Sequence record: NC_005833.1
Source: Escherichia phage T1
Reading direction: 5' to 3' (one strand)
Length of the DNA: 48,836 nt
This document shows, piece after piece, positions 4,142 through 42,877 of this stretch. The notes below the pieces were generated by a model, which was not told the origin of the DNA, did not search any database, and saw only the letters and a program-made list of their open reading frames with translations. Each line of letters begins with the position of its first letter. The first letter of the stretch is position 1. Both the position numbers and the translations under genes were made by a program.

Positions 4142-4360
4142 ATGGCTACTATCATGACAGTAGAAGATGCAGCACGCGATGCAGTGGAAGGAATGCGCCC
4201 AAATACCTCCAGAATAGCACACTACTACAAATCTGAGGTGTCGGCAGTGCAATTGGTCCACGAAATTTTAAGGCTCCCACAAGTCGATTCAGCGCGCGTT
4301 GTGACGTGCTTAAAAAATTATTTTTGCATCACTATTAAAACGAATAGCACGAATTGCTAA
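4142..4360 (+). CDS. hypothetical protein (72 aa); a competing 36-aa ORF at 4047..4157 has the better RBS
   Basis: Track ORF; weak RBS; overlaps small ORF 4047..4157. Confidence 0.25.
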   Translation: MATIMTVEDAARDAVEGMRPNTSRIAHYYKSEVSAVQLVHEILRLPQVDSARVVTCLKNYFCITIKTNSTNC

Positions 4361-4395
4361 AACCTATCAAGGGGAATACGCTATGATTCCCCTAC
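4344..4395 (+). promoter_or_regulatory. conserved box-hairpin element
   Basis: ATAGCACGAATTGCTAAAAC; TTGCTA 4354-4359; 22-nt spacer; TATGAT 4382-4387; AGGGGAAT / ATTCCCCT arms. Confidence 0.6.
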
Positions 4396-4417
4396 ACCAA
4401 CAAACGAGGAAGCGATC

Positions 4418-8311: not shown

Positions 8312-8321
8312 TGAACACTAA

Positions 8322-8342
8322 CCCGCTCCGGCGGGTTTTTTT
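8322..8342 (+). terminator. rho-independent terminator ending early region
   Basis: CCCGC tccg GCGGG followed by T7. Confidence 0.65.
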
Positions 8343-8395
8343 ATGCCTGCAATATGGTAAAATAGCACTAAATGTTAAACAAAGAGGATGTATTT

Positions 8396-15049: not shown

Positions 15050-15070
15050 CATAAAAACACTTTGACGCTT

Positions 15071-16099: not shown

Positions 16100-16106
16100 T
16101 ATTATA

Positions 16107-18758: not shown

Positions 18759-18794
18759 ATACCATCCACAGGGGGCTTGCACCCCCTTATTCAT

Positions 18795-18850
18795 TTCTGT
18801 AAAATCATCTTATCAACTTTATTCGATTAACTTTTAACAAAAAGTGCTAT
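18795..18850 (-). promoter_or_regulatory. box copy in antisense orientation between major tail and chaperone genes
   Basis: Plus strand TTAACAAAAAGTGCTAT 18834-18850; reverse-strand reading has TAAGAT hexamer 22 nt downstream. Confidence 0.4.
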
Positions 18851-19189: not shown

Positions 19190-19506
19190 AAAGGGCGGTT
19201 TATCTGTTATATCAGAAACCGCCAACAGAAGAGCAATTAAGATCGGTTGGCCTCAGTCTTTCTGACTATGAAGACGAGGAACCGGAAACGATAATCGGCG
19301 ATGCTGAAATGGTGAAGGCGTGGAATGTTTTTACGTCAATGCTCACTCAGTGGAGAAGTTCAGGCGCTGGAGCTTATGGTCTTGACTATAATGTTTTGCC
19401 TATGTTGTTCAAAATCTATAAAATAGAAGATGAAGAACTGGCATTGCAGGACGTTAGGATCATGGAAGCGAAAGCGCTTGAAATGATTGCTAAGCAAAAC
19501 AACTAA
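18872..19506 (+). CDS. tail assembly chaperone, -1 frameshift extended form (lambda G-T-like)
   Basis: The -1 frame is open from 19186 through ORF 19309..19506; slippery A_AAA_AAC at 19180-19186; stem-loop 19194-19223. Confidence 0.45.
19180..19223 (+). other. programmed -1 ribosomal frameshift site (slippery heptamer plus stem-loop)
   Basis: A_AAA_AAC at 19180-19186 as last codons of chaperone ORF; 7-nt spacer; stem GGCGGTTT 19194-19201 / AAACCGCC 19216-19223. Confidence 0.5.
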
Positions 19507-19546
19507 GCCGCCGTTTGGCGGTTTTTTCGTATATAGGGGGGGTTAT

Positions 19547-22420
19547 ATGGTTGATAAGGTAGCAGGTCTATCTCTTGACGTTGACGTGTCAACAGTTCAG
19601 CGCGCTGTCAAGTCACTGAAAGAGTTTTCAAAGGCCAACGATCAGGCCGCTGATTCTATGGGTTCTTTAATCAATGAGTCAGAGGTTGCAAAACAGAAGG
19701 CCAAAGAACACGCCGAACAACTCAGGCGCCAGAGAAAAGAGTATGAGGCCGTGGAGAAGGCAATCGATCCTACAGTATCAAAAATGGAAAGGTTGAAGAT
19801 TGCATCTCAGCAGCTTGATAAACTCTGGCAGCAGGGAGTCGTTCCAGATGAGACTTTTTTCCGTTTGGGTGAAATGCTGGATCTGCAAAACGCAAAACTT
19901 GCTCGCAGCCGGGCCATGCTGACAGAAGAAGGGCAGGCAGCATTGCAAGAGGCGAAAGCAAAAGAGCAGGCGGCAGTGCGTAGCAAGGCGTTCATGGATG
20001 CCCTGAATGGTCAAGTTAACGCGATCGGTAAGACTCATGCTGAATTGATGGAACTGAAAGCGGCTGAGCTTGGTTTATCGAAAGAAGCAGCACCACTAAT
20101 CGCAAAACTTAAAGATCAAGGCCGGGCTATGAATGCAGCAGGTATTAGCGCCGGGGAATACAGACAGGCAATGCGAATGCTTCCTGCGCAGATCACAGAT
20201 GTCGTAACATCTCTTGCATCCGGTATGCCAGTATGGATGGTTGCTATCCAACAGGGCGGTCAGATTAAGGATTCGTTCGGCGGGATCGGTAACACGTTTA
20301 AAGTGTTGCTGAGTTATATTAATCCGGTCACGGCAGGTGTTGGCGTTCTTGTTGGTTCGTTAGGTATTCTAGCGAAAGCTGGTTATGACTCTTACAAATC
20401 AATAACTGATATTCAGAATGCGCTTATTGAGACTGGAGGTTATGCAGGTGTTACGGCTGAAGAGCTTGATTCAGTGTCTAAAAAGATCGCGCAGACAAGC
20501 AACTCAACCATTGGGAGTATTCGCGAGATTGTAACGGAGTTGGCGAGTTCTGGTAAGTACACCCGCGAGCAGATCCAGAACATCACTAAGGCTACCGCAG
20601 AGTGGTCAGCGTCAACAGGAAAATCAGCAAGTCAAATTATTTCTGAGTTCGAAAAAATAGCAAGCGATCCGGTAAAAGGACTGAAGAAGTTAAACGAGCA
20701 ATATAATTTCCTTGAAAAAGGGCAGCTTACCTATATCGATACATTAAGCCGGACGAAAGGAGAAACTGAGGCTGTATCAGAGGCTACAAAACTATTCGCA
20801 GACGTAATGGAAAAGCGAATGAAGTCGATCGCGGATAACGCTACTCCTCTGGAAAAGATGTGGAGCGATATTAAACAATGGGCTTCGGACGCGTGGGGAT
20901 GGGTTGGTGATCATACACTCGGGGCACTAAACCTGATTATCGACGTTGTTCAGGGTACAGTGATTCAGGTTAAAATGATTCTTGCGAAGGGTGATGAATA
21001 CATCTCAAACTTTATCGCCTCAGCCATAAAGGCAACTCAGTCACTGCCTGGAATGAGTGACTTCGGCGCTGATGTACTGAAGGAGCAGGAGAATATTGTA
21101 AAAAGTTCTCGCGACAACTACGATCAGTTAGCTTCAGATCTTGACGCTATTAACGCTCGTGTAGAAAAAGGCGAGATGGGATACATTGAAGCAATGAGGC
21201 AGCGCCGCACCCTTGAAAAGCAGTACAGTGAGGAAACTAAGGAGGCAATAAGGAAAGAAGCAGAAGAGATCGAGAAGCGAAACCGAGAACGAAATAAGCA
21301 GTCGAAAATTGTACGATCACCGACAGAGCAATTCGACAAGGAGTTAATTTCACTCAGGGCTCAACTTAAGGTATTGCAGGAGCATAAGGAGATCGGTCAA
21401 AAACTATCAGCACAGAGAAAGGCGCTGTTTACAACTGAGGCTACGATCGCTGTTCTTCGCGAAGCTAGTTCTAAGCGCCAGTTGTCTGCGGAAGAAAAAG
21501 CGTTGCTGGCAAGTCAGGAGAGAGTTATTGAGCTTGCGAAACAGAAGGCCGAGATTGGCGATCAGATTGTTAAGCAACAGCAGTTGAATGATCTTACCGA
21601 TAAATCTCTGAAGTTTGTCAATGAGATGACGGCGGCGACGGAACAGCTTAACGCGTCACGCGGTCTTAGTACTCGCGACATGGAACGACAAGCTGAACTA
21701 GCTAAAATCACCACTGATTACATCAACTCCGGCGGCAGCGAAGGAGACGAGAAACTTCAGAACATGATTAAGGCGCAAAATGATTACTACGCTGCGGAAG
21801 ATGCCAAGCGAGCTGACTGGTTGGCAGGTGCTGAAAGTGCTTTTGCTGATTACGGTGATGCAGCAATGGATATGTACGGCAATGTTAACGAGATCGCGTC
21901 AAGTGCCCTTAACGGAATGTCAGATATGATGGTTCAATTTCTGACCACAGGAAAAGCGAACTTTGAGGACTTTGCGAAAAATATCATCGGCATGATTATA
22001 AAGATGATTGCTCAGATGGTAATCTTCAATACGATCTCAGGCATGATGGGCGGTAAGACGTGGAGCTTTGCTGGAGGGGCGTCGTCTGGTGCTTCTGCGG
22101 CATCACAGGCAACCCCTACACCTGCTGCTTCTGTTTTTAGATCTGTATCTTCCGGCGGGGCCGCTGTATCACTTGCTGCCGCAGCGGGTAGCGTGGCAAC
22201 CTCTGGATTCAACGCATCAAACTCGGCGCCAAAGGTGGTAAACCATTCAGGAGGTGGAACGGTCGTTGACGTTAGCGGAATGGAGGTGAAAGTTGACAAC
22301 GGTTCAGATCCGAGGGGGATTTCTCAGGGCGTGGAAATGATGTTCAAAAAAATGATTCGTGAGTCTTGTTCGCAGGGCGGCGAGGTTTATAATTACATTC
22401 AGGAAAAAACAGGAGGCTAA
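19547..22420 (+). CDS. tail tape measure protein
   Basis: Track ORF 19487..22420; start refined to ATG 19547 after G-rich RBS; long helical Ala/Glu/Lys/Gln-rich protein with Gly/Ala/Ser-rich C-terminus. Confidence 0.85.
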
Positions 22421-22422
22421 TA

Positions 22423-22776
22423 ATGGCGACACTTGACACTTTTGGTTGGTGTACGCAGGTTCAAGGGGGCGGTGGCTCCCTTACCACTACCAACAGCGAC
22501 CGCTCTATTCAGTTCGGTAACGGGTACATGCAACTTGCATCATCTGGATTTAACACCACGCGGCGTGAATATTCAGTCGTCTATGCCGGGGAAGATTTCA
22601 TGGCTGTTTACGACTTCTGCAACTCTCACCGCATTAAGCCGTTCGCATGGACGCCGCCGGACGGTAAGATCGGGATATGGGTAGTAAAGCCTAACAGTTT
22701 GGGAGCGAAGCCAGTATCGCGCGACGTGATGGAGATTAACGTCACGTTTATGGAGCAATTTACATCTATGGAGTAA
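22423..22776 (+). CDS. minor tail protein (lambda M-like)
   Basis: 117-aa ORF directly after tape measure gene. Confidence 0.55.
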   Translation: MATLDTFGWCTQVQGGGGSLTTTNSDRSIQFGNGYMQLASSGFNTTRREYSVVYAGEDFMAVYDFCNSHRIKPFAWTPPDGKIGIWVVKPNSLGAKPVSRDVMEINVTFMEQFTSME

Positions 22777-22792
22777 CGCCATATAACAAAAG

Positions 22793-22827
22793 CCCGCCTT
22801 GCGCGGGTTTTTTTGTAGCTGTAGAAT
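22793..22827 (+). promoter_or_regulatory. terminator-promoter composite between M-like and L-like genes
   Basis: Hairpin CCCGC cttg GCGGG plus T7 run; overlapping TTGCGC 22799-22804, 17 nt, TAGAAT 22822-22827. Confidence 0.55.
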
Positions 22828-22855
22828 GGTTGCAGGTAAACAAGAGGAAAAATCA

Positions 22856-23638
22856 ATGAGCGAAAACAAAAAACTTTATGATGAAGAAAGCGGAAAGAGC
22901 CTGTTTCACAACTGCCTTCAATCACTATATCCGGGAGAGATAATCACTCTCATCGAAGTTGATGGTAGTAAGTTCGGCGCTCAGGTGTACCGATTCCACG
23001 GTGAGAATATCCAGTACACTCCAGAAGAAATCATGCAGGCCCAGCAAACTGGAACGCTACCGCCGAAGGAAATTACATTCCGTGGCGAGAAATACGGGGC
23101 GCGACCGTTCGGTATATCCGGGATCTCGTTTGACAGTTCCGGGAAGGCAACAAAACCACAATTAACGGTGGCAAACATTGATAGTCGCGTATCTGCGATG
23201 ATTCGTGCATATAACGGACTAATGCAAGCTAAGGTGACTATCTGGATAACTCAGCGTGAGCTTATTAACTCCGATGGCTCAATCGCTGATGGAGCTTACC
23301 GTAAACTGGTATACTATATCGAGCGTCCGAACTATGTTGATAAAAGCGTTGCGCGGTTCGATCTCACATCACCTTACGATATGGACGGCATAATGATCCC
23401 GTCTCGACTCACGCAAAGCGTATGCTATTTTGCACAACGAGGGTGGTATAAAACAGGGAAAGGCTGCGGATACAACGGGCAAAATGGTTACTTCGATAAA
23501 GACAATAATCCTGTAGACGATCCGTCGCTGGATTTTTGCCCGGGAACGGTAACGGCCTGCCGCCTGAGATTCGGCGCAAACAATGAATTGGATTTTGGCG
23601 GTTGCGCTGTCGCTTCATTACAGAGGAAAAATCAATGA
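22856..23638 (+). CDS. minor tail protein (lambda L-like)
   Basis: Track ORF 22799..23638; start refined to ATG 22856 after AAGAGGA; C-terminal cysteine cluster. Confidence 0.6.
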   Translation: MSENKKLYDEESGKSLFHNCLQSLYPGEIITLIEVDGSKFGAQVYRFHGENIQYTPEEIMQAQQTGTLPPKEITFRGEKYGARPFGISGISFDSSGKATKPQLTVANIDSRVSAMIRAYNGLMQAKVTIWITQRELINSDGSIADGAYRKLVYYIERPNYVDKSVARFDLTSPYDMDGIMIPSRLTQSVCYFAQRGWYKTGKGCGYNGQNGYFDKDNNPVDDPSLDFCPGTVTACRLRFGANNELDFGGCAVASLQRKNQ

Positions 23639-24369
23639 TTAGTGCAAAAATTAAACTTGAAATTATGACTCACGCTCAGGAAGAATACCCCCGCGAATGC
23701 TGCGGGGTAGTCACCCAAAAGGGCCGCGTGCAAAAATACCATCGCATTGATAATGTGCATCGTGATCCCGAGAATCATTTCATGATGGATGCTGTACAAT
23801 ACGCTTGCATTGAGGACGATGCGGAATCAACAACAATAGCAATTGTTCACAGCCACACAGGAGACGGGGCTACAACTCTACCAAGCGCTCACGATACGTG
23901 CATGTGCAACGAGATGGAAGTTACCTGGATTATTGTTAGCGTGCCGGAAGGGGATATGCGATTTGTGAAGCCGGAGAAATTGCCTCTGATTGGTCGTCCG
24001 TGGTCATTAGGATCATTCGACTGTTACGGTCTTGTTATGGCGTGGCACAAAGAGCACGGCGTAGAATTGCGCGATCGCCGATTGAATTTTGAATGGTGGA
24101 AACCTGAGTACGGAATTAATCTCTATCAGGATTATTACAAGCAGGATGGCTTCGTTGAGATTCCAGATCAGAATAATCCGTCATTCGGTGATATGGTAAT
24201 CATGCAGATAGGGCAAAACGTTCCGGTATGGAACCATGCAGGGATTTACCTGGGAGATAATCAGATCTTGCATCATGCCTTCGGCAAGCTATCTCGTCGT
24301 GATATTTATTCCGGATGGTATCAGGATCATACTGTTTTAATCGTTCGCCATAAGGATCTTAAATTATGA
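23635..24369 (+). CDS. tail assembly protein (lambda K-like; MPN/JAB plus NlpC/P60-type)
   Basis: Track ORF 23602..24369; start refined to ATG 23635 (ATGA overlap); HSHTG..D metal-site-like motif, Cys/His pairs. Confidence 0.6.
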   Translation: MISAKIKLEIMTHAQEEYPRECCGVVTQKGRVQKYHRIDNVHRDPENHFMMDAVQYACIEDDAESTTIAIVHSHTGDGATTLPSAHDTCMCNEMEVTWIIVSVPEGDMRFVKPEKLPLIGRPWSLGSFDCYGLVMAWHKEHGVELRDRRLNFEWWKPEYGINLYQDYYKQDGFVEIPDQNNPSFGDMVIMQIGQNVPVWNHAGIYLGDNQILHHAFGKLSRRDIYSGWYQDHTVLIVRHKDLKL

Positions 24370-24965
24370 ATGATGTAAAAGTAATTAAATTGTCAGGTTC
24401 ACTTGGGAGACGCTTCGGCGTCTTTCACCGTTACGCTGTTGACTCTTACCCGGAAGCCATACGGGCGCTATCCAGTCAGGTTGACGGATTTAAAGAATAC
24501 ATGCAAAGCGAGGTAGGATCTCGTAGCAAGTTTGCAATATTTGTGGATGGCGTTAACGTGGGACACCATGAAGAGGAAAAATTCAAGTGCGCGAAAGAGA
24601 TAAGAATCGTACCGATCCCTACTGGCTCTAAGACAGGAGGTCTATTTCAGGTTGTATTGGGCGCGGCAATAATGGTTGCAGCATTCTATACTGGCGGCGC
24701 GTCTCTGGCTTTAATGGGCACAATGTCCTCGTCTCTGTTTATGATGGGCGGCGCTATGGTGCTGGGCGGCGTGATGCAGATGATTTCACCGCAGCCGGGT
24801 GGCGCAAACTTTGAAGTTCAATCAAGCAAGAATAAACCTTCGTACGCGTTCGGCGGTGCTGTCAATACGACGGCGGCGGGATACCCTCTCCCGGTCCCGT
24901 ATGGATATCGCGCCGGAGGTGGGGCAACTTTCTCAGCAGGTTCTTATGCCGAGGATATGAGTTAA
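24366..24965 (+). CDS. tail assembly protein (lambda I-like)
   Basis: 199-aa ORF with Gly/Ala-rich hydrophobic C-terminal half; ATGA overlap with upstream gene. Confidence 0.6.
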   Translation: MNDVKVIKLSGSLGRRFGVFHRYAVDSYPEAIRALSSQVDGFKEYMQSEVGSRSKFAIFVDGVNVGHHEEEKFKCAKEIRIVPIPTGSKTGGLFQVVLGAAIMVAAFYTGGASLALMGTMSSSLFMMGGAMVLGGVMQMISPQPGGANFEVQSSKNKPSYAFGGAVNTTAAGYPLPVPYGYRAGGGATFSAGSYAEDMS

Positions 24966-24971
24966 AATTAA

Positions 24972-25006
24972 CCCGCCTTGCGCGGGTTTTTTTTCGCCTG
25001 TATAAT
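24972..25006 (+). promoter_or_regulatory. terminator-promoter composite between I-like and J-like genes (near-identical second copy)
   Basis: Same CCCGCCTTGCGCGGG + T-run; TTGCGC 24978-24983, 17 nt, TATAAT 25001-25006. Confidence 0.55.
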
Positions 25007-25042
25007 GAGTCCACCGATAAATAGCACAAAAAGGTAAACATC

Positions 25043-28000
25043 ATGATTCAAAAAGTGATAAGCGGATCTAAAGGTGGGTCACAGAAGCCTCATAACCCAG
25101 TTGAGATGGAGGACAATCTAATCTCAATCAACAAAATCAAGATCCTGTTAGCTGTATCTGATGGTGAAATTGACGAAACATTCAGCCTGAAGCAGTTGAT
25201 GTTTAACTCAGTCCCGGTGCAAAACGAGGATGGCTCATTTAACTTCGAGGGAGTAAAGGCAGAGTTCAGACCGGGGACGCAGACTCAGGAATATATCAAG
25301 GGAATGGAAGATAGCTCTAGTGAGGTAACTGTAAATCGTGAGGTTACTACCGATAACCCATACACAATCTCAGTAACCAACAAAACGCTGTCGGCAATCC
25401 GTATCAAAATGTTCATGCCTCGCGGCGTACGAATTGAAAGTAACGGTGATAAAAATGGCGTAAGAGTTGAGTATGAGGTGCAACAAGCTGTTGATGGCGG
25501 CTCGTTTGAGACGGTGCTCACCGATGTAATCGAAGGCAAAACAATGTCAGGTTACGATCGAAGCAGACGTGTAAACCTACCTAACTTCAACAATCAGGTG
25601 ATATTCAGAGTGGTTCGGAAAACTCCAGACTCTAACGACTCGAACGTTGTTGACGCGATTCAGGTAAAGAGCTATGCCGAGGTGATTGATGCCAAATTCC
25701 GTTATCCGCTGACTGGTCTTCTTTTTGTCGAGTTTGATTCGAAGATGTTCCCAAACCAGTTACCTACGATCTCAATTCGTAAGCGCTGGAAGATTGTAAA
25801 CGTTCCGTCAAACTATGATCCAGAATCACGAACTTATAACGGAAATTGGGATGGAACTTTTAAGAAGGCATGGACGAATAATCCGGCCTGGGTGCTTTAT
25901 GACCTGATGATTAATCAGCGTTATGGCTTGGATCAGAAAGAGCTTGGTATCGCTGTAGATAAATGGGCGCTCTACGAGGCTGCGCAATATTGCGATCAGA
26001 TGGTTCCTGATGGGAAGGGCGGGACGGAACCTCGATACCTTTGCGACGTGATAATCCAGTCTCAGACTGACGCTTACAAGGTTATCCGAGATATTTGCTC
26101 AATCTTTCGTGGTATGAGCTTTTGGAATGGTGAGAGCATTTCGGTAATCATCGACAGGCCGCGTGAACCTGCGTACATCTTCACTAACGACAACGTTGTT
26201 AATGGTGACTTCTCCTACACGTTCGCAAGCGAAAAGAGCATGTACACGACGTGTAATGTGATGTTTGATGATGAACAAAACATGTATCAGCAGGACGTTG
26301 AGCCAGTATTCGATCGTGAGGCTACTCTACGGTTTGGGAACAACGTTACGAGCATTACAGCGATCGGTTGCACACGTCGAAGCGAGGCCAACCGACGCGG
26401 GAGATGGATTCTGAAAACTAACCTCCGCAGCACTACGGTAAACTTCGCTACCGGGCTTGAGGGCATGATCCCGACAATCGGAGATGTTGTGGCAATAGCT
26501 GATAACTTCTGGTCAAGTAACTTGACAATGAACCTGTCAGGGCGTTTGCTCGAAGTGTCTGGAAGTCAGATTTTCTTGCCGTTCCGGGTGGATGCACGCG
26601 CTGGTGACTTTATTATCGTAAATAAGCCAGATGGCAAGCCTGTGAAGCGCACAATCTCAAGTGTTAGTGCGGATGGTAAGACTATAGAGGTTAACATTGG
26701 CTTTGGCTTTCCTGTGAAGCCTAACACGGTATTCGCTATCGACCGCACCGACATTGCGTTACAGCAGTACGTCGTGACAAAAATCGATAAGGGCGATGAT
26801 GATGAGGAATTTACCTACAAAATAACGGCGGTGGAGTACGATCCTAACAAGTATGATGAGATTGATTACGGAGTTAACATCGACGACCGACCGACGAGCA
26901 TCGTTGAACCAGATCAGATCCCTAGACCGAAAAATGTGCAAGTATCCTCAGAGTCGAGAATCGTCCAGGGGATGAGCGTAGAAACGATGATTGTTAGCTG
27001 GGATAAAGTTCCGTACGCTGTTTTCTATGACGTCCAGTGGCGAAAGGATAACGGCAACTGGCAAAATGTACCGCAGACAGCAAACAAAGAGGTATACGTT
27101 GAAGGTATTTACGCTGGCAACTATCAGGTTCGCGTTCGCTCAGTCGCTGGTTCGGGCACGACTTCAGGCTGGTCAAATATCGTCGCGGCAACGTTGACGG
27201 GTAAACAGGGTGAACCGGGCCGACCGATTAACCTCACAGCTACGGATGATGTTGTTTTTGGTATCCGTACAAAATGGGGGTTCTCTGATGGTTCTGGAGA
27301 TACAGCCTATACAGAGTTGCAACAGTCACCGGATGGAACAGTGGATAACGCAAGTTTGCTTTCTTTGATTCCGTATCCGCAGCATGAGTATTATCACTCA
27401 CCAATGCCTGGAGGGAATATTGTTTGGTATCGGGTAAGGACGGTTGACAGGATCGGTAACGTGTCTCAGTGGACTGATTTTGTCAGAGGTATGGCATCAA
27501 CAAACGTTGACGATATCATTGGGGAGATTTCTGTTGATATCGAAAACTCACCTGGTTACGAGTGGCTTGTTGATAACGCAACAGACAACGCGGCGCAGAA
27601 CTCAGCTAACGCAGAGGCAGCAATAGAAAACGCGCTCGCCAATGACAAAGACGCGATCTACATGAAGAAGGAGAACGGAAAACGAAAAGCTGAGTACACG
27701 AAATCACTGAAACTTATTGCTGATGAGACGCAGGCACGAGTGACGGCGATCGAGCAATTGAAGGCAAGTTTTGGCGATCAGATTAGCGCTAGCAACAGCG
27801 AGCTGCGTGAGGTTATCGCAACCGAGACTGAAGCACTATCGCGTGAGATTGACCAGCTTAAGGCTCAGATTGGTGACGATATTCAGGCAAGTCTGACTGA
27901 TATTCGGGAGGTTATCGCAACCGAGACTGAAGCACTATCGCGTGAGATTGACCAGCTTAAGGCTCAGATTGGTGACGATATTCAGGCAAGTCTGACTGAT

Positions 28001-28561
28001 ATTCGGGAGGCTATCGCGAACGAGACTGAGGCTAGAACGCAAGCTGACTTAACACTTAGCGCGCGGCTTGGAAATAACGAGGCGGCACTTGCTCAAAAAC
28101 TAGACTCGTGGAGTAACGCGGATTCTACTGGTGCAATGTACGGTGTCAAGTTGGGTCTGAAATACAACGGCCAGGAATACAGTGCAGGCATGGCTATGTC
28201 TCTAGTTGGTTCCGGAGCTGCGGTTAAGGCGCAGATTTTGTTTGAGGCGTCACGATTTGCCATCATGACTGGAATGAATGGTCAGACTCAGTACCCCTTC
28301 GTTGTTGAGAATGGTCAGGTTATTTTAAGTAGCGCGATTATCAAGAACGGATTCATCACCAACGCAATGATTGGAAACTTCATCCAGTCGAATAACTATG
28401 TATTTAACCAGTCCGGATGGAGGCTTGACAAGGGTGGAACATTCGAAAATTACGGAAGTGACGGTGAGGGTGCAATGAAGCAAACTAATACCACAATATC
28501 TGTTAGGGATGCGAGTGGTCGCCTGAGGGTTCAGATTGGCAGGTTGACTGGCTCATGGTAA
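25043..28561 (+). CDS. tail tip / host specificity protein (lambda J-like central fibre)
   Basis: 1172-aa ORF following M/L/K/I-like genes; contains a 2 x 99 bp perfect in-frame tandem repeat. Confidence 0.8.
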   Translation: MIQKVISGSKGGSQKPHNPVEMEDNLISINKIKILLAVSDGEIDETFSLKQLMFNSVPVQNEDGSFNFEGVKAEFRPGTQTQEYIKGMEDSSSEVTVNREVTTDNPYTISVTNKTLSAIRIKMFMPRGVRIESNGDKNGVRVEYEVQQAVDGGSFETVLTDVIEGKTMSGYDRSRRVNLPNFNNQVIFRVVRKTPDSNDSNVVDAIQVKSYAEVIDAKFRYPLTGLLFVEFDSKMFPNQLPTISIRKRWKIVNVPSNYDPESRTYNGNWDGTFKKAWTNNPAWVLYDLMINQRYGLDQKELGIAVDKWALYEAAQYCDQMVPDGKGGTEPRYLCDVIIQSQTDAYKVIRDICSIFRGMSFWNGESISVIIDRPREPAYIFTNDNVVNGDFSYTFASEKSMYTTCNVMFDDEQNMYQQDVEPVFDREATLRFGNNVTSITAIGCTRRSEANRRGRWILKTNLRSTTVNFATGLEGMIPTIGDVVAIADNFWSSNLTMNLSGRLLEVSGSQIFLPFRVDARAGDFIIVNKPDGKPVKRTISSVSADGKTIEVNIGFGFPVKPNTVFAIDRTDIALQQYVVTKIDKGDDDEEFTYKITAVEYDPNKYDEIDYGVNIDDRPTSIVEPDQIPRPKNVQVSSESRIVQGMSVETMIVSWDKVPYAVFYDVQWRKDNGNWQNVPQTANKEVYVEGIYAGNYQVRVRSVAGSGTTSGWSNIVAATLTGKQGEPGRPINLTATDDVVFGIRTKWGFSDGSGDTAYTELQQSPDGTVDNASLLSLIPYPQHEYYHSPMPGGNIVWYRVRTVDRIGNVSQWTDFVRGMASTNVDDIIGEISVDIENSPGYEWLVDNATDNAAQNSANAEAAIENALANDKDAIYMKKENGKRKAEYTKSLKLIADETQARVTAIEQLKASFGDQISASNSELREVIATETEALSREIDQLKAQIGDDIQASLTDIREVIATETEALSREIDQLKAQIGDDIQASLTDIREAIANETEARTQADLTLSARLGNNEAALAQKLDSWSNADSTGAMYGVKLGLKYNGQEYSAGMAMSLVGSGAAVKAQILFEASRFAIMTGMNGQTQYPFVVENGQVILSSAIIKNGFITNAMIGNFIQSNNYVFNQSGWRLDKGGTFENYGSDGEGAMKQTNTTISVRDASGRLRVQIGRLTGSW
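27811..28008 (+). repeat. perfect in-frame tandem duplication, 2 x 99 bp, inside J-like gene
   Basis: 27811-27909 and 27910-28008 read identically; encodes a 33-aa unit twice, followed by a diverged third unit. Confidence 0.8.
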
Positions 28562-42759: not shown

Positions 42760-42877
42760 CAATAGCATTCATCACCTTACAGGCTGGCATGATTTACATG
42801 CTGGCCTTTTTGCGTTGTGTCAAATAAATTTGAAGGTTAAAATCGACTCACTTGTTCAAAAAATATATGGTGAGATT

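Follow-up and report, generated by a model that had tools for sequence, protein, structure and literature searches.

Two intergenic elements in the tail region of Escherichia phage T1, one ahead of the lambda L-like tail tip gene and the other ahead of the J-like host specificity gene, probably each consist of an intrinsic terminator that overlaps a sigma-70 promoter whose -35 is weak and whose -10 element is strong, i.e. a composite cassette that would be read by the host RNA polymerase. The features concerned are listed in Table 1; all coordinates refer to the window, that is, the whole stretch of 48 836 nt of T1 DNA (NC_005833.1) that was analysed, which is 100% identical to MN153797. The gene context is as stated in the preliminary description: an M-like gene precedes the first element, the L-, K- and I-like genes lie between the two and the I-like gene comes directly before the second hairpin. 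Both predicted terminators are on the strand of the genes, 16 nt past the M stop codon in cassette 1 and 6 nt past the I stop codon in cassette 2. The putative transcription start of cassette 1, at about position 22834, falls upstream of a ribosome binding site (RBS; AAGAGG, 22842–22847) and of the L start codon (ATG, 22856).

Table 1. Tail genes, hairpin cassettes and associated elements of phage T1 (coordinates of the window)
Feature	Coordinates	Strand	Remarks
Fourth, degenerate paralogue, upstream of the small terminase gene	8320..8355	+	AACCCGC-TCCG-GCGGGTT, T-run, GCCTG, CAATAT (8350-8355)
Third cassette, after the major tail gene	18770..18805	+	Hairpin AGGGGG-CTTGCA-CCCCCT (18770-18787)
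Lambda M-like minor tail gene, upstream of cassette 1	22423..22776	+	phrog_14, E 7e-27; annotated in MN153797
Cassette 1, predicted terminator	22793..22814	+	Hairpin CCCGC-CTTGC-GCGGG (22793-22807), T7 (22808-22814)
Cassette 1, -35-like TTGCGC	22799..22804	+	In loop and 3' arm; 3/6 matches
Cassette 1, putative -10 TAGAAT	22822..22827	+	5/6 matches; CTG before, GG after
Lambda L-like tail tip gene	22856..23638	+	phrog_18, E 7e-98
Lambda K-like tail gene	23635..24369	+	phrog_30, E 1e-111
Lambda I-like tail assembly gene	24366..24965	+	phrog_32, E 8e-67
Cassette 2, predicted terminator	24972..24994	+	Same hairpin as in cassette 1 (24972-24986), T8 (24987-24994)
Cassette 2, -35-like TTGCGC	24978..24983	+	3/6 matches
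Cassette 2, putative -10 TATAAT	25001..25006	+	6/6 matches; inferred transcription start ~25013
Degenerate direct repeat copy (ATAGCACnnnTTGnTAAAA), J leader	25021..25039	+	Includes the RBS
Lambda J-like central tail fibre / host specificity gene	25043..28561	+	phrog_31, E 0

Both hairpins fold with five G:C pairs, lengthened by A:U pairs, around a loop of 5 nt, and in cassette 1 the stem is extended by an upstream A-tract. The folding energies are −13.7 kcal/mol for cassette 1 and −12.8 kcal/mol for cassette 2 (z-scores against shuffled sequences of −3.4 and −2.9, respectively), and an unbroken U-tract follows directly 3′ of each stem. The + strand terminator at 22793 escaped our consensus scanner, which apparently extended the stem into the A/T tracts so that the T-tail test failed; the feature was confirmed by direct reading and folding. 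In OL960578, the annotation has rho-independent terminators at the sites homologous to both cassettes. Homologous terminators also appear as T28, T46 and T49 in Table S1 for phage TLS, T49 being the counterpart of cassette 2 (PMC11447400). An Rfam scan of the whole window returned no family match. With a perfect run of 7–8 U behind a G:C-rich stem, each element has the look of an efficient terminator, and the 'partial' termination proposed in the preliminary description is a guess; with a terminator as efficient as this one looks, the promoter would be a necessity and not a fine-tuner.

The promoter half was found as first described: TTGCGC overlaps the hairpin and is followed, after a spacer of exactly 17 nt in both copies, by TAGAAT or TATAAT. 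The third cassette and nearly all relatives have a spacer of this length too. The -35-like hexamer matches TTGACA at 3/6 positions, in its TTG part only, and so fails the usual scan rule of at least 4/6. Neither promoter was listed by the consensus scan for this reason, and the promoter elements absent from the scanner output were read directly from the sequence. A different promoter is annotated in OL960578, upstream of the M/L terminator and inside the end of M; its T1 equivalent (TTTACA-17-TATAAC) was judged spurious: its -10 has no T at position 6, the site is not kept in relatives and any transcript from it would run directly into the terminator. No RNA end mapping or transcriptome for T1 or any Drexlerviridae relative was found in the searchable literature.

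The two cassettes had been thought to frame the L, K and I genes. Such a framing is not specific: the pair belongs to a set of at least three cassettes, at the V/G, M/L and I/J junctions, among about nine terminators of the structural operon. In the third cassette TTGCAC (18777–18782) is followed by a 17-nt spacer with CTG at its end and by TAAAAT (18800–18805). The fourth, degenerate paralogue (8320–8355) differs by two mismatches from the extended repeat unit defined below (0.00 expected) and has a direct repeat downstream (8362–8380); at this site, two distant relatives carry TTGCGG-17-TATAAT. Five other terminators of the late operon (16106, 16443, 19505, 28566 and 29600) lead straight into an RBS, with no -10. 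In the window as a whole, TTG-N20-TANAAT was found eight times, against 2.6 expected, and three of the eight are the cassettes at 18777, 22799 and 24978; the chance of TANAAT at one fixed position is about 0.0015.

Some 70 related loci from Drexlerviridae phages were compared, and the comparison supports the terminator half as well as the promoter half. Stem pairing is held by compensating changes, with 23–24 distinct hairpins per junction; the outer pair may be A:T, G:C or C:G, and the arms may read, for example, GCCGC/GCGGC where T1 has CCCGC/GCGGG. The I/J stem is, in addition, conserved in sequence above what pairing alone demands, so that another constraint is possible. At this junction (33 diverse junctions, K-protein identity 53–100%), the invariant intergenic columns are four positions of the -10, a C of the stem and a G of the RBS. 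The four -10 columns are the T, A, A and T of the TATAAT hexamer. Variation is limited to the third position (TATAAT, TACAAT or TAGAAT), which is the least conserved one in the sigma-70 -10 consensus, except in one outlier (L072, TATACT). In nearly all lineages, TTG(C/T)G(C/G) precedes the -10 at a distance of exactly 17 nt, even though loops differ (CTTGC, CGTTGC, ATT, GTT, CTTTGT and CATTGT). At the V/G junction TTGCG(C/T)-17-TAnAAT or TAATAT is kept in most of about 40 distinct junctions of relatives. The M/L -10 (TAGAAT, TATAAT or TACAAT) is kept in all lineages with a K identity of at least 67%, with five exceptions, four of which are hairpin-only (L016, L024, L039 and L044) while the fifth has had its -10 removed by a deletion (L012); in several genera this -10 carries a canonical TGn extension (e.g. 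TGCTACAAT). Two departures concern the I/J junction: one lineage with a K identity of ~54% has TAGTGC where the others have TTG, and in isolate L013 the 3′ arm and the TTG have been lost but TATAAT is retained, so that terminator and -35 are dispensable there. Taken across these loci, stem covariation, a -10 that is conserved above all other intergenic elements and the 17-nt register of the loop TTG at three junctions uphold the composite structure that had been proposed.

According to the terminator–promoter reading, transcripts arriving from upstream would fold a short G:C-rich hairpin followed by 7–8 U and stop there by intrinsic termination. The -35 would be formed by the TTG at the 3′ end of the loop together with the first bases of the 3′ arm, the T-run would make up the upstream half of the 17-nt spacer, and the near-consensus -10 (TAGAAT or TATAAT, with G after it) would lie just downstream of the T-run, so placed that a new transcript begins ~20–30 nt ahead of the next start codon. 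Three or more such cassettes in the tail region (after the major tail gene, M and I) would divide the co-oriented structural operon into modules, namely G/T/tape measure/M, L-K-I and J. The RNA level of each module would be given by its own promoter plus read-through, and the terminator may shield the promoter against interference from incoming polymerases. Actual termination and initiation at these sites, with whatever efficiencies, and a balanced dosage of tail tip proteins as the benefit are what we infer from this arrangement.

It is rather unlikely that the sites are terminators only, whose hairpins end or attenuate transcription or stabilize mRNA 3′ ends, and that TAnAAT is kept for some purpose other than initiation, for instance as part of the leader RNA, as a site for RNase or as a signal for sigma-70-dependent pausing. 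Such a reading would agree with the weakness of the -35, which kept it out of the consensus scan, with the five late-operon terminators that run into an RBS and with the M/L junction of the ~54% K identity group, which is terminator only. It would also agree with the TLS re-annotation, in which strict criteria left three sigma-70 promoters only, and terminators but no promoters are listed at the sites homologous to the cassettes (PMC11447400). However, conservation here has exactly the pattern expected of a -10, with T, A, A and T invariant (apart from the L072 outlier), a variable third position and a G after the hexamer; three independent junctions have the loop TTG in a fixed 17-nt register in spite of differing loop lengths; and the M/L -10 has its TGn extension in several genera.

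We regard as improbable the idea that the cassettes are mainly recombination linkers, as proposed for the promoter-early stem-loops (PeSLs) of T4-type phages, that is, islands of identity at module borders that allow swap, insertion or deletion. The L-K-I block is indeed flanked by an identical 22-nt direct repeat, which would then be a by-product or a substrate of exchange, and the hairpin core is conserved above the flanking coding DNA; moreover, a few relatives carry HNH endonuclease genes as insertions precisely at I/J, others have an insertion of additional genes together with their promoters at M/L, and the PeSLs provide a precedent (PMC2839356, PMC4122927). Nevertheless, when T1 was profiled pairwise against six close relatives, identity did not switch at either cassette, a clear switch being seen only inside K (L005), and the flanked tail genes are conserved, syntenic and of essential type, not variable ORFans. 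Among close relatives, the M and K proteins share 94–100% amino-acid identity. A linker role is, in any case, compatible with a transcriptional role.

The resemblance to PeSLs is one of architecture, i.e. a repeated intergenic overlap of a sigma-70-type promoter and a stem-loop terminator or attenuator, located past a stop codon and ahead of the following RBS. Promoter and terminator activities of PeSLs were verified by lacZ fusions, and in one PeSL subclass the stem-loop overlaps the -35 (PMC2839356). [quoted passage not shown] Furthermore, PeSLs are concentrated in hyperplastic regions, next to non-essential ORFans, and are linked with indels and mini-circles; their T1 counterparts, in contrast, have a canonical U-tract, lie in a siphovirus late structural operon among conserved tail genes and are not associated with breakpoints in the identity profiles, the HNH insertions at I/J in a few relatives being the sole hint of such junctions.

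A further reading, which we consider something of a long shot, makes the overlap functional in itself. Hairpin, U-tract, -35 and spacer share the same 30 bp, so that a promoter-bound polymerase would occupy the DNA of termination and the efficiencies of termination and re-initiation would be mechanically coupled. The cassette could then act as a self-balancing valve under which tail-tip transcripts downstream stay at a constant level for any flux from upstream, perhaps gated by a factor acting on the J-leader repeat, and TTGCGC-N17-CTGTAnAAT would represent a dedicated class of Drexlerviridae late promoters.

The claim that an identical hairpin occurs at both sites was also borne out. The exact 15-mer CCCGCCTTGCGCGGG, with a T-run, is present after the M-like and the I-like gene, at exactly two places on the + strand (22793–22807 and 24972–24986), and no further copies were found elsewhere in the window even with up to two mismatches. 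The number of matches expected by chance, with two mismatches allowed, is 0.07, and two or more were reached in none of 100 shuffles. The extended unit GCGGG-T7-N4-CTGTANAATG is matched exactly in both copies (0.00 expected), meaning that the repeat outruns the hairpin. The hairpins of M/L and I/J differ from each other in genera other than the Tunavirus lineage, and the exact sameness of the two T1 15-mers most likely arose by duplication or gene conversion within that lineage. That the likeness of the two sites is chance, or the trivial sameness of short G:C-rich terminators, and has no specific meaning is hardly credible: the sequence space of such stems is limited and the ACCCGC/GCGGGT stem recurs at 8320 with another loop, but the reading is already refuted by these shuffle statistics (for the hairpin and for the extended unit) and by the conservation data, the two sites share loop, T-run and -10 context, and the stems of the other six late-operon terminators are unrelated.

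A family-wide direct repeat of 19–21 nt, ATAGCACnnnTTGnTAAAA, is present in 24 copies in the window (2.1 expected). The copy in the J leader (25021) is highly conserved in relatives; in TLS it corresponds to DR8, downstream of T49 (PMC11447400). It was considered as an upstream promoter element for J and rejected, no -10 being found at the fixed distance of 22 nt downstream. The DR-type promoters of T1-like phages (aaATAGCACnnnTTGnTAAAA, then a -10) are likewise repeated intergenic cassettes of a -10 and a hairpin in the same genome. In the early regions they have the DR upstream, with TTGnTA ahead of the -10 at a constant 22 nt, and the -10 itself is in a hairpin loop. In the tail cassettes, by contrast, no DR lies upstream of either -10, and a terminator-loop TTG is found at 17 nt instead.

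According to the 2024 TLS re-annotation, the late region of T1 was described, in the T1 genome paper of 2004, as "transcriptons", terminator-flanked modules with RpoD promoters; the TLS authors could not confirm transcriptons in TLS and doubt the scheme there (PMC11447400). Our predictions match the T1 architecture: L-K-I would lie between the terminators at 22793 and 24972, with a promoter at 22799–22827, and J between those at 24972 and 28566, with a promoter at 24978–25006. Grading of mRNA within structural genes is known from other phages. phiX174 has leaky intrinsic terminators after genes J, F, G and H, and Ff phages have a gene VIII terminator and a gene III promoter; in both, terminators and internal promoters in a co-oriented structural cluster grade mRNA roughly by virion copy number. 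T1 would share with phiX174 and Ff the use of mRNA-grading terminators and internal promoters among co-oriented structural genes. To our knowledge, the phiX174 and Ff elements are not repeated sequence copies, and we know of no report of composites with the -35 in a loop among them.

The novelty of the T1 cassettes is low, as relatives already annotate these terminators, T1 transcriptons have been outlined in print and PeSLs are a tested precedent. A layout that is conserved in T1-like phages and already outlined in print is real, not surprising, and no new biological question is raised by it, the concept being established by T1 transcriptons, T4 PeSLs and phiX174 attenuation. What the present analysis shows is family-wide conservation of the candidate promoter signature TTG-17-TAnAAT at three junctions. 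If true, the interpretation would aid annotation in the Drexlerviridae, where consensus scans miss these promoters. It would also help to engineer therapeutic T1-like phages, since swaps of J or of tail-tip genes without broken expression need intact cassettes, and the cassettes themselves could serve as compact natural insulator parts. In lambda, the late genes are served by a single antiterminated promoter. In T1, by contrast, if both activities are real, the dosage of shaft, tape measure, tip (L-K-I) and J would be set largely by hard-wired cassettes and an unmodified host polymerase.

The hairpin and T-run that had been described as identical after the M-like and I-like tail genes are indeed present twice: with up to two mismatches allowed, CCCGCCTTGCGCGGG was found only at the M/L junction (cassette 1) and the I/J junction (cassette 2; 0.07 expected), and in both copies TTGCGC is separated from TAGAAT or TATAAT by exactly 17 nt. 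The exact repeat confirms the duplicated composite, but the repeated unit is longer than the preliminary description had it, since GCGGG-T7-N4-CTGTANAATG, which extends beyond the hairpin, is exact in both copies (0.00 expected). RNA folding gives five G:C pairs plus an A:U extension and a 5-nt loop at both sites (−13.7 and −12.8 kcal/mol for cassettes 1 and 2; z-scores −3.4 and −2.9), and these predicted folds are classic intrinsic terminators. The tail genes concerned lie within a co-oriented structural block (∼8.3 to 29.6 kb). Region 22600–25200 is 100% identical to MN153797 (Tunavirus T1) and 92–99% identical to dozens of Tunavirus isolates. Coordinates of the window and of MN153797 agree exactly to ∼19.2 kb but differ by one base from ∼22.4 kb on, indicating a 1-nt indel between the two T1 sequences within the region of the tape measure gene or close to it (19487–22420).

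Coordinates of the tail genes, the cassette elements and the genome-wide repeat in phage T1
Feature	Coordinates	Strand	Remark
M	22423-22776	+	lambda-like tail gene; gene context
L	22856-23638	+	lambda-like tail gene; gene context
K	23635-24369	+	lambda-like tail gene; gene context
I	24366-24965	+	lambda-like tail gene; gene context
J	25043-28561	+	lambda-like tail gene; gene context
Hairpin, cassette 1	22793-22807		CCCGCCTTGCGCGGG
-35-like, cassette 1	22799-22804	+	TTGCGC
T-run, cassette 1	22808-22814	+	T7
-10, cassette 1	22822-22827	+	TAGAAT
Hairpin, cassette 2	24972-24986		CCCGCCTTGCGCGGG
-35-like, cassette 2	24978-24983	+	TTGCGC
T-run, cassette 2	24987-24994	+	T8
-10, cassette 2	25001-25006	+	TATAAT
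Hairpin, third cassette	18770-18787		AGGGGG-CTTGCA-CCCCCT; after major tail gene
-35-like, third cassette	18777-18782		TTGCAC; 17-nt spacer with CTG at its end
-10, third cassette	18800-18805		TAAAAT
Repeat ATAGCACnnnTTGnTAAAA, e.g.	1450, 2269, 4344, 4864, 6531, 36444, 38953, 41956	+	
Repeat ATAGCACnnnTTGnTAAAA, e.g.	102, 15068, 18832, 46140, 47099, 47615	-	

The two copies are not merely a pair; they belong to a family of three to four. All intergenic gaps of the structural operon were read; terminator-like hairpins were found at 16106, 16443, 18770, 19505, 22793, 24972, 28566 and 29600, most of them leading directly into a ribosome-binding site. The hairpin at 18770, which follows the major tail gene, has the same architecture as cassettes 1 and 2. 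Genome-wide, TTG-N20-TANAAT occurs eight times (2.6 expected), and three of the eight are the cassettes after the major tail gene, at M/L and at I/J. A fourth element (8320–8355), which precedes the gene for the small terminase (phrog_606), carries the extended unit with two mismatches; its UCCG loop and poor hexamer (CAATAT) make it look like a decayed copy in T1. Outside the structural region, a terminator (AGGCTGGCATG...CATGCTGGCCT plus T-run) is followed within 8 nt, without overlap, by TTGTGT-17-TAAAAT (42781–42843). No Rfam family matched anywhere in the window.

The cassettes were compared across IMG/VR loci (73 at K homologues, 16 at the small terminase gene and 52 at the major tail gene) with K-protein identities to T1 from 100% down to 46%. 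Each junction shows 23–24 distinct hairpins, with pairing retained in all: outer stem pairs alternate among A:T, G:C and C:G, and among the cores are CCCGC/GCGGG, GCCGC/GCGGC, GGCCCGC/GCGGGCC, GCCCC/GGGGC and GGGCCC/GGGCCC. Hairpin, T-run and -10 are found at I/J in every lineage to ∼53% K identity, except where a gene is inserted there; the most distant loci (46–49%) have the terminator only. When 33 diverse I/J junctions are aligned, only the stop codon, one C of the stem, a G of the ribosome-binding site and T/A/A/T of the -10 are invariant, and the G after the -10 is nearly so. The variants TATAAT, TACAAT and TAGAAT differ only at the third position, the least conserved of the sigma-70 -10 consensus; one outlier (L072) has TATACT.

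It is possible that the cassettes act as terminators only, but this reading leaves unexplained both the -10-type conservation and the fixed register of TTG. Nearly all lineages have TTG(C/T)G(C/G) at a distance of exactly 17 nt 5' of the -10, and every length change among the loop variants (CTTGC, CGTTGC, ATT, GTT, CTTTGT, CATTGT, CTTGT) falls 5' of TTG. Variation in terminator loops is normally unconstrained. A conserved TTG kept in fixed register with a -10 is the pattern expected of a -35 element. The same rule applies at M/L in lineages with K identity of at least 67%, with five exceptions (hairpin only in L016, L024, L039 and L044; promoter deleted in L012). It also applies at the major-tail junction (TTGCGC/TTGCGT, 17 nt, TAAAAT/TAGAAT/TAATAT/TACAAT in most of ∼40 distinct sequences), and TTGCGG-17-TATAAT precedes the small terminase gene in two distant relatives. 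The M/L -10 of several genera has a canonical TGn extension (TGCTACAAT), a known compensation for a weak -35. There is counter-evidence at I/J: a group with ∼54% K identity has TAGTGC in place of TTG, and locus L013 has lost the 3' arm and loop TTG (replaced, AACCCGCTCCGCATTCATTTTTTTT, 4329–4417) with T-run and TATAAT intact. At least one viable phage, a natural terminator knock-out, can thus do without the terminator.

There is a hint that the cassettes might serve as recombination linkers, as proposed for the promoter/stem-loop cassettes (PeSLs) of T4-type phages, given the 22-bp direct repeat at the cassettes and the genes that some relatives have inserted at these sites. In profiles of identity to six close relatives, however, neither cassette marks a breakpoint. 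Chance resemblance of the two sites is excluded by shuffle statistics. The M/L and I/J hairpins of most other genera are unlike each other (at M/L, e.g. AAAGCCGC-CTTTGT-GCGGCTTT; at I/J, ACCCGC-CTTGC-GCGGGT), and the same 15-mer is shared by both sites only in Tunavirus and one more distant phage (L031). This restriction suggests duplication or gene conversion between the sites in that lineage, and does not speak for a special function of the pair.

Some relatives have altered junctions. An HNH-type homing endonuclease gene lies exactly in the I/J intergenic region of L020/L021 (4328–4831, minus strand) and L057/L061 (4370–4858, plus strand), replacing or displacing the cassette; its likely promoter in L020 is a reverse-oriented repeat. 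Immediately after the M stop, the distant relatives L059, L062 and L064 have a promoter of the repeat type (ATAGCACGAATTGCTAAAG and a TATTAT-bearing hairpin; ∼1870–1990) and then an extra small gene, a moron-like insertion between M and L. In L012 (contig of 49,628 bp; ∼2300–2340) the M/L hairpin is fused to sequence ∼110 nt into L, with loss of T-run, promoter, ribosome-binding site and the first ∼37 L codons, either a real deletion or an assembly error.

The repeat ATAGCACnnnTTGnTAAAA has 24 sites in the window (2.1 expected), and its function is given as unknown in the re-annotation of the closely related phage TLS (PMC11447400). Where the repeat occurs in early regions, a constant 22 nt separates its TTGnTA from a downstream -10-like hexamer, which forms part of a hairpin (loop or 3' arm). 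With a -35 region that is too distant for plain sigma-70 and the hexamer within a hairpin, the repeat looks like a distinct promoter class resembling PeSLs. Between the -10 of I/J and the start codon of J there is a degenerate copy (25021–39), which shows strong conservation in relatives (AGCACAAAAGGTTAAAA). The copy at 15068–86, in reverse orientation, immediately precedes the major capsid gene and overlaps a strong predicted promoter (TTGACG-16-TGC-TATTAT at 15062); that at 18832–50, also reversed, is upstream of the tail chaperone gene.

The best explanation of the cassettes, judged from sequence, is an intrinsic terminator overlapping a predicted sigma-70 promoter with a weak -35 (3/6), a 17-nt spacer of optimal length and a -10 close to consensus, although a consensus scan of the window called neither promoter. 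The structural part of the composite first proposed is largely right, with clear conservation. Transcription would start near 22834 and 25013, giving short leaders with ribosome-binding sites. In TLS no RNA polymerase or sigma-factor gene was found, and the phage is expected to rely on its host's transcription apparatus (PMC11447400), and we assume the same of T1. Termination had been proposed to be partial; the perfect U-tracts suggest that the terminators may well be efficient, in which case the promoters would be needed for expression of L-K-I and J. The cassettes would divide the tail region into modules, local promoter and read-through together setting the RNA level of each, and each terminator would shield its promoter from occlusion by incoming polymerases. 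The suggested role in tail-tip protein stoichiometry is a hypothesis, reasonable by analogy.

OL960578 and TLS annotate the homologous hairpins as rho-independent terminators (in TLS, T46 and T49, with direct repeat DR8 downstream of T49; T28 is the terminase-upstream copy). Where it cites the T1 genome paper (2004), the TLS re-annotation describes the T1 late region as ‘transcriptons’, terminator-flanked modules with RpoD promoters; under stricter criteria its authors could not confirm this scheme for TLS (PMC11447400). PeSLs are composite sigma-70 promoter/stem-loop cassettes of five subclasses, one with the stem-loop over the -35, whose promoter and terminator activities were demonstrated by lacZ fusions (PMC2839356). 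The T1 cassettes resemble them in predicted mode of action but differ in promoter strength, upstream AT-rich region and genomic context, lying at conserved tail genes rather than at ORFans in hyperplastic regions. As punctuation of phage transcription they would be of an ordinary kind, and the modular late transcription of T1, a classic phage, had been outlined in print before. The present analysis adds a three-to-four-copy cassette family and phylogenetic support for the predicted promoter half, which is absent from current annotations.
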